From the IMG/VR virus record IMGVR_UViG_3300012155_000058, positions 1 through 5,842 of that record: a stretch of 5,842 nucleotides of DNA; one strand, written 5' to 3'. A program made the position numbers and the translations under genes. Positions 1,002 through 3,570 of this stretch are shown piece by piece. The notes under the pieces are model-generated. The model had not been told where the DNA came from. It did no database searches and saw only the letters and a program-made list of their open reading frames with translations. Within the stretch, counting starts at the first letter, position 1, and every line of letters starts with the position of its first letter. The DNA comes from a virus. Lineage: Duplodnaviria > Heunggongvirae > Uroviricota > Caudoviricetes.

Positions 1002-1105
1002 TAACTGAAAAAGCACGTAATTTTTTCAGTTCCGCAGATCCTTTTTAGATCCTTGCTGCGCGGGCTTTTGCGGCCCTTTATTGCAATATCCAGAACTGAA
1101 AAAAC
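1002..1105. repeat. Three copies of a 10-12 bp motif AACTGAAAAA(A): direct at 1002-1011 and 1094-1105, inverted at 1021-1032
   Basis: TTTTTTCAGTTC (1021-1032) is the exact reverse complement of GAACTGAAAAAA (1094-1105), flanking about 61 bp. AACTGAAAAA at 1002-1011 also pairs with 1022-1031 around a 9-nt loop. Read directly from the sequence. Confidence 0.6.
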
Positions 1106-1257
1106 TTTAACCACGCACAAGCGGCGGGCGTGCGGGTGAGCGCGGTTTTCGTCCCGCTGGCGTTCCGGTGTTCAGATTTTGACCGCGCGCCGTGTATCGA
1201 GCACCGCCAGACCTGCAGGACCGCCATAAATGACCGTGTTTGCCGGAATGAGGACGT

Positions 1258-1279
1258 AAAAAAGCCCGCGCAGGCGGGC
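1258..1279 (-). terminator. Rho-independent terminator of the minus-strand operon
   Basis: On the minus strand: GCCCGC-ctgc-GCGGGC (perfect 6-bp GC stem, 4-nt loop; plus coordinates 1264-1279) followed by TTTTTT (complement of 1258-1263), starting 12 nt downstream of the gene E stop at 1292-1294. Confidence 0.6.
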
Positions 1280-1291
1280 AATGAGAAGGGA

Positions 1292-2938
1292 TTAGCGTTC
1301 TATGATGGGGGATAGCTGCGCATGTAGCGTTGCAGCATTGACAGATTCAGCCGTAAACAATGCGGCGGTTGTAGGTGGGCTACTGGGGCCGCACTGGCAG
1401 TTATGGATGTGCGCAGCGTCAGCCGCTGCTAGCCGTTGAACAACCATCATCAGGTTATCCAACAGCACAAAAATATTTATTGCGTCCGTGCCGGTCCAAC
1501 TCTTTCCGGCTTCAAAATGCTGCAATTCTTTAGCCACGCTACGCCGCAGCTTGCCGACGACTTCAACCAACTGCCCGCCGACAGCGTGCCGGTGATCTCC
1601 TCCTGCTCCGGTGTCAATATCACCTGCAGTCATCTGCTCAATAGCGCCCAGGGTATGCAGGATATGCGACCCGCCAACCTGTAACACATCATCACCCGTT
1701 ACGCTGGCGCGACGCTCCGCGACGTCCGTCTGTTCTTCATCCACCGTCAACTTTCGCACCCGCGCAACTTCGGTCAGTGCCTGATCGGTTTCGCGGCTGA
1801 CATCGCCGCGACTGTTTGTCTTATGCAGAACGCCCGCGCGCGACTGCTGCACCTGCTCACCCGCAGCAACAGCAGGCAGCGTCAACCCCTGCGCCATTAC
1901 CTGGCGGATGTGTGGGCGGTCCGGGCGTGCCTCACTGAATCCCAGTTCGACCAGTGTTCCCGGCGCTGGGTACTGCATCAAGCCGCTATCGCTTCCGCCA
2001 AACCCAACCGGCAACGGCACAGCCTGATAAACAGGGACCGTTTGATCTGGTTTCCCGTCTTCATCAAGTAACTGAACATTGACGGCAAAACGCGGACGGA
2101 ATGGATCTGATATGTCGCTATGGCCGGTCGTGTCGCTGATAGCCTCAACGCGGCCAATTTTTGGCAGGTGTAAACCTGCGGCCAGTTCCGGAAACTCCTT
2201 TTCAGCCTGGCGGCGGAATTGCGATTTTTGCGCCTCGCGGCCTTTGCTGTCTGTTACTGCCCATTTGACTGACATCTGGTCATCAGTCAGATCGATACGC
2301 TTAACCCGCTGGCCGTTAACGACAGCGCCAGGCCGCAGTGACGGCACGCACACGATCCGCATAGTGTCGCCGCCAGTCTGCTGATCAGAAAATCCGGGCG
2401 GTATCTCAACGGGCAATGACGGCCATCGGGATTCCTGCCAACTACCAACAAACACAACACCTTCGGGCAACTGCTGCCAGATATAATCCGGGATAGAAAA
2501 AGCGCGCCCCAGGTTGTTTAGCAACTGATAGCCGCTGCCTGAATGGGTAAAGTTAGGGATCGGCGTATCGGTGTATTTCTGCCCGTCTGGCAGCGCAAAC
2601 GCCAGCCCGCACTGTTCAGTAACCCAGTTACAGACATCCCGTAATGTTGGGTGCTGTATTGAACAGGGCATAGGGCGCGCCAGTATTCCCGTTAATTCAC
2701 GCACCAGGATACGCTGCCAGCCCTTTTCCGCCTGCTGACTACGCTCAACAATACCAGTGAACCAGCGCAGCATTTTTCCGGAATACCCCAGATCCAGCGC
2801 GACCATTTTTCCCTGTAAGTTTTCATCACCGGGGACCGTGACAAAACCCAACCCAGCGCCGGACAACTCCAGCGCCAGATGTACATTAACCGGCGTTACC
2901 GTCTGCGAACCGATATAAAAACGGCTTGTTATCTTCAT
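1292..2938 (-). CDS. Gene E: hypothetical protein, 548 aa, no recognisable domain; last gene of the operon
   Basis: Long ORF; ATG 2938-2936 overlaps gene D stop (ATGA); followed by the terminator at 1258-1279. No Walker A, no reverse-transcriptase YxDD, no obvious transmembrane segments. Confidence 0.8.
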   Translation of the reverse strand: MKITSRFYIGSQTVTPVNVHLALELSGAGLGFVTVPGDENLQGKMVALDLGYSGKMLRWFTGIVERSQQAEKGWQRILVRELTGILARPMPCSIQHPTLRDVCNWVTEQCGLAFALPDGQKYTDTPIPNFTHSGSGYQLLNNLGRAFSIPDYIWQQLPEGVVFVGSWQESRWPSLPVEIPPGFSDQQTGGDTMRIVCVPSLRPGAVVNGQRVKRIDLTDDQMSVKWAVTDSKGREAQKSQFRRQAEKEFPELAAGLHLPKIGRVEAISDTTGHSDISDPFRPRFAVNVQLLDEDGKPDQTVPVYQAVPLPVGFGGSDSGLMQYPAPGTLVELGFSEARPDRPHIRQVMAQGLTLPAVAAGEQVQQSRAGVLHKTNSRGDVSRETDQALTEVARVRKLTVDEEQTDVAERRASVTGDDVLQVGGSHILHTLGAIEQMTAGDIDTGAGGDHRHAVGGQLVEVVGKLRRSVAKELQHFEAGKSWTGTDAINIFVLLDNLMMVVQRLAAADAAHIHNCQCGPSSPPTTAALFTAESVNAATLHAQLSPIIER

Positions 2939-3570
2939 TTGTCTTTGTCCGTTTTGACAGCTGATCCGGCCGTACCGTTTGACGTCGTATCCGCTTTTGA
3001 TTCAGACGGCGACGGGGCCAGCCAATCATCAATTTTTTTCCAGAATTTATCTGATGACGACATTTCAGTGTCTGGCGGTGTATTTTCCCCAGAAGATGCA
3101 CCCGGCGTCGTAATACCTGGCGTTGTCTGCGAAACAACCCCGCCCAGTTTTGAAAATACGTTGGCCTCTTTTTTCTCCGGCACACTGCTGTACTCCCGCA
3201 GAGTGAACGACACGTTCCACGCCCGCAGTGAATCCGATTCCGGCGCGCTCAGACGCCCGGTGAATGTCGCCTGGCGCATGTTGATCGCCGTGGCGGTGAG
3301 ATTAGAAACGCGGTAAACCGTCTGCTTTCCGCCCTCGTCCACCCCTTCCGCCAGTTCAAAAATACGCGTAAGAAATTCAACATTACGAAACGGGATCACG
3401 CCGCTGACGTTTAATTCCTTTGCTTTTATCCCGCCCTCACTTTTCTGCGTTCCCGACGTCTGGCCAGACTGATCTTTGTCTTTGAACGGCAAAACAGCCT
3501 CCACTTTCAGATTCAGCATTTTTACCGTTTCGCCGTTCAGCGTTAAAATTACTGGGTGTCTCGTGCTCAT
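2935..3570 (-). CDS. Gene D: hypothetical protein, 211 aa, with a low-complexity S/T/P/G/K/D-rich C-terminal tail
   Basis: ATG 3570-3568 overlaps gene C stop (ATGA) and is preceded by GAAGGG about 6 nt upstream. An N-terminal region of about 130 aa of ordinary composition is followed by a C-terminal third of compositionally biased sequence. Confidence 0.75.
   Translation of the reverse strand: MSTRHPVILTLNGETVKMLNLKVEAVLPFKDKDQSGQTSGTQKSEGGIKAKELNVSGVIPFRNVEFLTRIFELAEGVDEGGKQTVYRVSNLTATAINMRQATFTGRLSAPESDSLRAWNVSFTLREYSSVPEKKEANVFSKLGGVVSQTTPGITTPGASSGENTPPDTEMSSSDKFWKKIDDWLAPSPSESKADTTSNGTAGSAVKTDKDK

Follow-up and report, generated by a model that had tools for sequence, protein, structure and literature searches.

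The convergent gap between nucleotides 794 and 1291 of the DNA analysed in this study (5,842 nucleotides in total, hereafter the window) raises the question of why a short word should recur there three times and in both orientations, and what is represented by the perfect inverted repeat that two of its copies form. A pair of protein-binding sites, a large convergent terminator, a MITE-like remnant and an insertion junction were the four explanations offered in the original prediction. The reading favoured here, that of a phage packaging site, is not among these four; the pair of protein-binding sites comes nearest to it, as the words would appear to be conserved, position-fixed putative recognition sites.

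Genomic context of the word cluster

The window is part of the chromosome of E. coli 40EC, in which a P2-family prophage of approximately 33.6 kb lies between yeaE and mipA. Its annotation places the integrase at the far end and includes P2-type capsid, terminase, portal, ogr and replication genes, as well as its own DNA adenine methylase (L009 9635-10633); the prophage might be defective. Window bases 1 to ~113-117, which comprise the start of yeaE and the sequence upstream of it, were matched in all 5,426 complete E. coli genomes, and at least 80% of the length of the remainder was covered in eight of these genomes only. A prophage in strain N1420, 79% identical to that of 40EC, occupies a different site (adjoining yecA and a partial tRNA-Leu), and its similarity to the window begins at position 326. 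Taken together, these two results place the host/prophage junction at approximately 115 (113-117) and identify 118-325 as an att arm specific to this integrase, the junction and arm together spanning 113-325. Two integration sites are thus seen for one phage type, namely yeaE/mipA in seven genomes and the tRNA-Leu 3' end beside yecA in N1420 (L002 19790-20016), and the att arms of 40EC and N1420 are unrelated. Three matches to the IHF consensus occur in this half of the window, all within the 40EC att arm at 123-264. A match to Rfam STnc420 at 71-120 on the plus strand is weak (22.7 bits, the gathering score being 70; E = 0.59) and probably without meaning; it overlaps a hairpin upstream of yeaE that resembles a bidirectional terminator.

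The word cluster sits inside the prophage in the gap at 794-1291, which is flanked on one side by an AT-rich gene pair on the plus strand and on the other by the end of the tail operon on the minus strand. The gene pair (342-793), positioned as cargo between att and cos, encodes a DUF4177-like protein of 78 aa, for which the Pfam match is below the cut-off, and a YidD-like protein of 71 aa; a PADLOC search for defence families returned no match for either gene. The pair is nearly the same sequence in the 40EC and N1420 prophages despite their other sites and their overall identity of 79%, and it is missing in HP1, where cos and attP are approximately 250 bp apart. A terminator on the cargo side was read from the sequence at ~803-830. 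The opposite flank holds the Rho-independent terminator of the tail operon (1264-1279, minus strand; GCCCGCCTGCGCGGGC followed by TTTTTT), which is kept in N1420 and is also found after the orf35 homolog in ESSI-2, YenM324, HP1 and phiO18P. The last tail or baseplate gene (1292-2938, minus strand), whose product of 548 aa served as the synteny anchor, is the homolog of HP1 orf35, HP2 orf35 and K139 orf39, with 35-47% identity over its full length to HP1-like phages (tblastn), and the 211-aa gene beside it matches Pfam HP1_ORF34.

Repeated words and the inverted repeat

All three copies of the motif described in the original prediction are present, one base away from where it had placed them: AACTGAAAAA occurs at 1003-1012 (plus strand), 1022-1031 (minus strand) and 1094-1103 (plus strand). 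These are the only copies in the whole 33.6-kb prophage, all three being clustered within 1003-1103. By number alone the count in the window is only moderately unusual (three matches against 0.59 expected, a number reached in 4 of 200 shuffles). For the relaxed word AYTGAAAA, five of the 12 prophage copies lie inside 940-1105 (Poisson P ~4e-10), and none is found in the block 118-939, which is as AT-rich as 940-1105; the clustering of words in 940-1105 is not chance.

The perfect 12-bp inverted repeat also exists, its arms being located at 1021-1032 (TTTTTTCAGTTC) and 1093-1104 (GAACTGAAAAAA) and enclosing 60 bp rather than the 61 or so that had been proposed. With respect to the cohesive end predicted below, the arms correspond to a distal inverted word (1021-1032, plus strand; GAACTGAAAAAA on the minus strand) at +111 and a proximal word (1093-1104, minus strand; TTTTTTCAGTTC) starting 37-38 nt from that end, and the third word (1003-1012, plus strand), which with 1022-1031 makes up a 10-bp palindrome with a 9-bp spacer, is located at +129. 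Both elements ascribed to the 60-bp spacer (1033-1092) were found: AGATCC is repeated at 1036-1041 and 1047-1052, 11 bp apart, within the GATC-containing direct repeat AGATCCTT at 1036-1043 and 1047-1054, and the short GC-rich element is a small hairpin at 1062-1076. A conserved short word, TTGCAAT (1081-1087), adjoins the proximal word. The outer part of the region (948-1001) contains the degenerate word TTTTCAAT at 948-955 and 994-1001 and, between these two, the GATC palindrome GATCACATTCGTGATC at 972-987, and the cos arm accordingly has four GATC sites arranged in two close pairs (972 and 984; 1037 and 1048). A perfect 14-nt inverted match between 1056-1069 and 1260-1273 (CTGCGCGGGCTTTT and AAAAGCCCGCGCAG, 190 nt apart) ties the small spacer hairpin to the tail-operon terminator, and may be just two GC hairpins that look alike.

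The compositional step near position 1100 is real, the GC content rising from ~38% to ~60%, but it does not mark an insertion boundary, the host junction being at ~113-117 and the similarity between related prophages breaking off at ~1166.

A predicted cohesive-end block beside the words

In the linear records of HP1, HP2, K139, phiO18P and ESSI-2 the orf35 homolog comes last among the genes, at a distance of 180-220 bp from a genome end. In the HP1 record cosL is annotated at 1-9 and attP at 251-694, int starts at 698, and orf35 stops 192 bp before the right end, from which annotations a circular order of orf35 - cos - attP - int follows. The order in the window is that of HP1, except that the two AT-rich genes separate cos from att, and the physical genome ends of the related phages fall at the place that corresponds to the word cluster of 40EC.

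A cohesive-end sequence (cosN) is predicted at 1123-1140 on the minus strand (CTCACCCGCACGCCCGCC), with nick positions deduced by homology. Using a slash for the ends of the block, the 40EC minus strand CCGCG/CTCACCCGCACGCCCGCC matches the annotated phiO18P cohesive end CCGCG/CTCATCCGCTCCCGCC, which is 16 nt in length. The full junction reads ...CCACGGAATCCGCG/CTCATCCGCTCCCGCC/TGCGGG...AAATTTTTTGCAAAAG in phiO18P and ...GGGACGAAAACCGCG/CTCACCCGCACGCCCGCC/GCTTGT...AAAGTTTTTTCAGTTC on the minus strand of 40EC, and a T-run begins at nt 37 in both. The ESSI-2 record has the same 15 nt at both of its ends (CTACACCGCACCCGC in this orientation), followed by TTTTTTCAGTTT at +39. These alignments are short and were judged by eye and by positional concordance rather than by an E-value; it is the matches to phiO18P and ESSI-2 that place the block at 1123-1140, where 40EC has a 2-nt insertion relative to both. 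The block is present as a single copy in the 33.6-kb prophage, the next best match having four mismatches. The 24 nt at 1126-1149, which include 1126-1140 of the cohesive end, are identical in all phage and satellite copies, and the first three plus-strand bases of the block (1123-1125) differ in N1420 and in the satellites.

The flank of cos on the right-end (orf35) side (1141-1166, minus strand; CGCCAGCGGGACGAAAACCGCG) contains an ACGAAAA word ending 4 nt before the cohesive end, and is kept in the satellites to ~1166, beyond which there is no similarity. Its counterparts in HP1, CFP3, phiO18P, A051, YenM324 and SI7 are the CCACGGAA(A) words that immediately precede the cohesive end. An ACGGAAA-type word ending 3-5 nt before the cohesive end is common to 40EC, the satellite L018 and these six phages; in N1420, ESSI-2 and the other satellite its place is taken by variant words.

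As neither blastn nor megablast of the region against the phage collection gave a match, these relatives were reached via proteins. Among one-genome-per-species representatives, no genome was found with the exact 24-mer or by a protein-anchored search with the orf35 homolog, the element being too rare to appear there. When viral and metagenome data were scanned with the 24-mer, all matches were near-identical copies from the phage or the satellites, which added little diversity.

Positions of the words across phages

Eleven junctions were compared, each numbered from the first base of its cohesive end, whether known or inferred. The inverted word TTTTTCAGT is found at +36 to +39 in 40EC, N1420, ESSI-2, YenM324 (one mismatch), HP1, Pasteurella phage CFP3 and two satellites. 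The word in the opposite orientation follows at +107 to +119 in 40EC, N1420, ESSI-2 and HP1 (one mismatch in each of the last three), in CFP3 and in two satellites, and the third word at +128 to +147 in 40EC (+129), N1420 (+128), ESSI-2 (+140) and HP1 (+147, one mismatch). These offsets hold in seven phages or prophages, although in some of them not all three words are present or free of mismatches, and nearly the same offsets as in 40EC are seen in phages of Cronobacter, Yersinia, Haemophilus and Pasteurella. Since the flanking DNA cannot be aligned between genera and the words are nonetheless retained at their offsets, selection is indicated. The distal word of N1420 has one mismatch and a 1-nt deletion, so that the exact sequence is not strictly needed.

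GATC-containing repeats (GGATC(T)) occur at +87 to +121 in 40EC, N1420, CFP3, phiO18P and A051, the repeat of CFP3 being GGATCTATAAAAAAGATCTTAACTGAAAAA as against GGATCTAAAAAGGATCTGCGGAACTGAAAAAA in the window. Words of the type ATTGAAAAG, comparable to those of the outer part at 948-1001, are present in ESSI-2 and YenM324.

No CAGTT word was found in phiO18P, A051 or Salmonella phage SI7. These three have TTTGCAAAAG at +34 to +40 instead, which in SI7 recurs at +135, and words of this type are also seen in the phiO18P/SI7 group at the places equivalent to TTGCAAT. The corresponding loci are L012 35-50 for phiO18P, L022 ~3420-3560 for SI7 and L023 for A051. A different word at the same offsets fits phage-specific recognition, and the occurrence of TTTGCAAAAG and TTTTTCAGTT at equal offsets possibly represents a swap of packaging specificity within one cos architecture.

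P4-like satellites share the predicted packaging region

A sensitive search of the gap against E. coli genomes revealed that four other genomes have an unannotated stretch with ~80% identity to window ~1070-1164. Inspection of two of the four showed P4-like satellites whose genes encode an Icd-like protein, the epsilon "derepression protein", a DUF927 primase and Ogr/Delta, the match in both being located between the delta-like gene and Phd/YefM-YoeB cargo beside the integrase end. The toxin-antitoxin pair Phd/YefM-YoeB directly adjoins the satellite cos. In all, the cos block is carried by P4-like L004 (1-7100), L005 (1-6700) and L017-L020, next to a cargo hotspot.

The only DNA shared by satellites and prophage consists of ogr/delta (~80% at the nucleotide level), one small early gene and the cos region. 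Conservation in the phage/satellite alignment extends over ~1018-1166, both repeat arms included, with invariant islands at 1022-1029 (TTTTTCAG), 1094-1104 (AACTGAAAAAA) and in the 24-nt block at 1126-1149. TGCAAT at 1082-1087 is nearly invariant, and TTGCAAT (1081-1087) is kept but for one A in L016 and one T in L018; TTTTCA at 948-953 is kept, and ACTGAAAT/ATTGAAAT words are present in the area of the third word. The 60-bp spacer has diverged in the satellites and has neither GATC nor the GC hairpin, so that it is evidently not needed by everything that uses this cos. The near-identical ogr/delta and cos suggest, at the level of sequence, a dedicated helper-satellite pair outside the classical P2-P4 pairing.

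A CRISPR protospacer within the region

The region is also a CRISPR target, in that 1020-1051 (minus strand) constitutes a protospacer of type I-E, its canonical PAM (5'-AAG) being at 1054-1052, and annotated CRISPR arrays of 10 E. coli genomes match window 1020-1052 at 33 of 33 positions. The array located between ygcE and queE (L003 1289-1927) contains this spacer. Strain AMSHJX01 has eight spacers in its array, and for five of these a match was found in the prophage of 40EC or N1420 (0, 0, 1, 1 and 3 mismatches), which indicates repeated spacer uptake from this phage family in that lineage.

Discussion

Based on the findings of this study, the word cluster in 40EC is very probably the part of a cos site on which terminase is loaded (its accessory half), the prophage being an HP1-/ESSI-2-/phiO18P-like member of the P2 family (Peduoviridae), and a loading function resembling that of lambda cosB is, by analogy, its best-supported reading. 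The layout, with the block at 1123-1140 and words at +38, +111 and +129 toward the left end of the genome, is kept across genera and in the satellites that such a phage must package. Late in infection, the terminase, composed of homologs of P2 gpM (WP_087603728) and gpP, would recognise circular or concatemeric DNA through the repeated words, as in the lambda model. The proximal and distal inverted words, approximately 72 bp apart from start to start, might be joined on a terminase oligomer, with the A-tract-rich spacer presumably bent or wrapped in bringing them together. The nuclease would thereby be set over the GC-rich block some 20 bp away, where staggered nicks would generate cohesive ends of roughly 16-18 nt and packaging could begin. 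If the words are protein-recognition sites, the 12-bp inverted repeat represents two oppositely oriented copies of one word and not a stem, and the change from AT-rich to GC-rich DNA reflects the point at which the AT-rich loading region meets the GC-rich cleavage block.

The most serious competitor accepts that the region is cos and differs in what reads the words, which could be a host DNA-bending protein (IHF-, HU- or Fis-like) rather than the small terminase, unless the words simply act as intrinsically bent A-tracts. We regard this as a genuine possibility, albeit an unlikely one. The word is A/T-rich with A6 runs, it is common to phages of Pasteurellaceae and Enterobacteriaceae, hosts with conserved nucleoid proteins, and lambda cosB uses IHF; furthermore, the identity of the small terminase to that of 40EC (ESSI-2 47%, SI7 44%, phiO18P 41%, HP1 40%) tracks overall relatedness and not word type. 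However, the IHF consensus WATCAANNNNTTR has no match in 940-1170 when up to one mismatch is allowed, and the CAGTT part of the word is conserved as much as the A-tract. The different word at the same offsets in SI7, a phage of a closely related enterobacterial host, is hard to square with a shared host factor and argues for a phage-encoded reader.

That the inverted repeat is instead a functional RNA or DNA hairpin (a large terminator, a small RNA or a cruciform) is highly improbable. The folding predictions do lend it some substance, as the minus strand of 40EC is predicted to form a long stem (z = -3.4 to -4.2), one satellite gives a comparable prediction (z = -2.2), and 1055-1076 contains weak terminator-like hairpins. 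No such stem results for N1420 (z = -0.13), however, where one arm has changed without a compensating change; no co-varying position pairs are seen, and the same word is kept in both arms at positions fixed to the cohesive end and not to a mutual pairing register. Rfam 15 gave no match in 800-1300 at E <= 1. The idea of a large convergent terminator fares no better, given that the flanking genes have their own terminators at ~803-830 and 1264-1279 (minus strand), the latter being a hairpin separate from the repeat. A Rho-independent terminator was likewise considered and rejected, the 12-bp arms being A/T-rich and 60 nt apart and the inner hairpin at 1055-1076 being weak and not kept in the satellites.

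Equally remote is the prospect that the words are arm-type integrase, excisionase or Cox sites of attP, even if the HP1 cos is only ~250 bp from attP and a related word, ATTTCAGTTAATTGA, is located at the annotated edge of HP1 attP (246-259). The distance from the words to the cohesive end is kept, whereas that to att varies from ~250 bp in HP1 to ~1,000 bp in 40EC; 40EC and N1420 have the same words with different integration sites and att arms, and in the satellites the words are separated from the integrase by cargo genes. It is because the words keep their distance to cos and not to att, and occur with different integrases, that this reading is unlikely.

Least probable of all is a MITE-like remnant, or the scar of an insertion through which the GC-rich operon or the AT-rich genes arrived: 12-bp terminal inverted repeats around a short core at a composition step have that appearance, but there is one copy per genome (of the 22 among 5,426 E. 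coli genomes that match, 12 have the cos region, with no departure from the phage or satellite context, and 10 have the CRISPR spacer only), no target-site duplication flanks the arms, the arms are the word at fixed offsets in distant phages that have no AT-rich genes, the true mosaic breakpoints are elsewhere (~326 and ~1166), and an insertion junction is contradicted by the prophage ending at ~115 and by the repeats being internal to a block common to prophages at different chromosomal sites.

With the words thus taken to be the loading half of cos, several known systems may be compared. The cos of Haemophilus phage HP1, Aeromonas phage phiO18P and Cronobacter phage ESSI-2 is like that of 40EC in its place between the orf35-type last tail gene and attP/int, in its homologous GC-rich cohesive-end block, in the ACGGAAA-type word that immediately precedes the end, in a T-run word that starts ~35-40 nt in from the left end, and in the GATC repeats further in. 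By comparison, the block predicted for 40EC is ~2 nt longer, a two-gene AT-rich cargo lies between cos and att, one clear ACGAAAA word is present on the right-end side where HP1 has three, and TTTTTCAGTT is found where phiO18P has TTTGCAAAAG.

In lambda, cosB consists of R3-I1-R2-R1 beside cosN, and IHF is used. The 40EC region would share with it a set of short repeated words that occur in either orientation on a single flank of the nicking site, span ~120-200 bp and have a bendable spacer between the first two. In contrast, 40EC has no sequence similarity to cosB and no IHF-consensus site between the words, and its small terminase belongs to another family (P2 gpM type); the relation is analogy, not membership. 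Cleavage of the phage P1 pac site needs Dam methylation of clustered GATC words and leads to headful packaging. The predicted packaging site of 40EC likewise has clustered GATC (1037, 1048, 972 and 984), together with a phage-encoded DNA adenine methylase, but P1 is a headful and not a cos phage, and the satellites that use the 40EC-type cos have no GATC in the region, so that the parallel is purely a lead.

The resemblance to P2/P4 consists in a helper and a satellite sharing a packaging signal and almost nothing else, with variable cargo directly beside cos, and in TTTTTTCAG at +47/48, 47-55 nt inside cosL of P2. The cos of P2 is located between the portal gene Q and the old/tin/A region and not beside attP, and its 19-nt cohesive end GGCGAGGCGGGGAAAGCAC has no counterpart in the 40EC prophage, where the best match has mismatches at five of the 19 positions. 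A scan of the prophage and the satellites found no P2-type cos (best match 5-7 mismatches in 19), and P2 and P4 cos, also unconvincing by eye, were set aside as direct counterparts. The P2/P4 cos was described by Ziermann and Calendar (1990), as cited in PMC9122126, where P2 and P4 are reported to have cos alone in common. The general premise of a P2/P4 cos was found in the searchable literature, and a description of these words was not.

It is tempting to go further and regard the three-word layout (+38, +111, +129) as a swappable packaging-specificity code of HP1-like phages (TTTTTCAGTT versus TTTGCAAAAG), which a P4-like lineage adopted in its 40EC-type form along with a near-identical ogr/delta to exploit a non-P2 helper, and to which the GATC pair of the spacer might add, in the phage only, a dependence of cos cleavage on Dam resembling that of P1 pac; this combined proposal is speculative and, as a whole, rather doubtful.

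A prophage packaging site is a further example of an already well-known type of element. The present analysis proposes a function for an unannotated 500-bp gap of a rare E. coli prophage and corrects its misreading as an insertion scar or terminator. The predicted packaging site, and hence the predicted genome ends, of this phage group would help in annotating and re-orienting genomes, the satellites that are expected to be mobilised by this phage, such as those in Z1323HEC0462 and PapRG-04-4, have been identified, and a compact stretch of ~150-250 bp is defined as a candidate transduction signal. The positions of the words across genera, together with the existence of two alternative words, would provide a simple route to study the recognition of cos by the terminases of P2-family phages.
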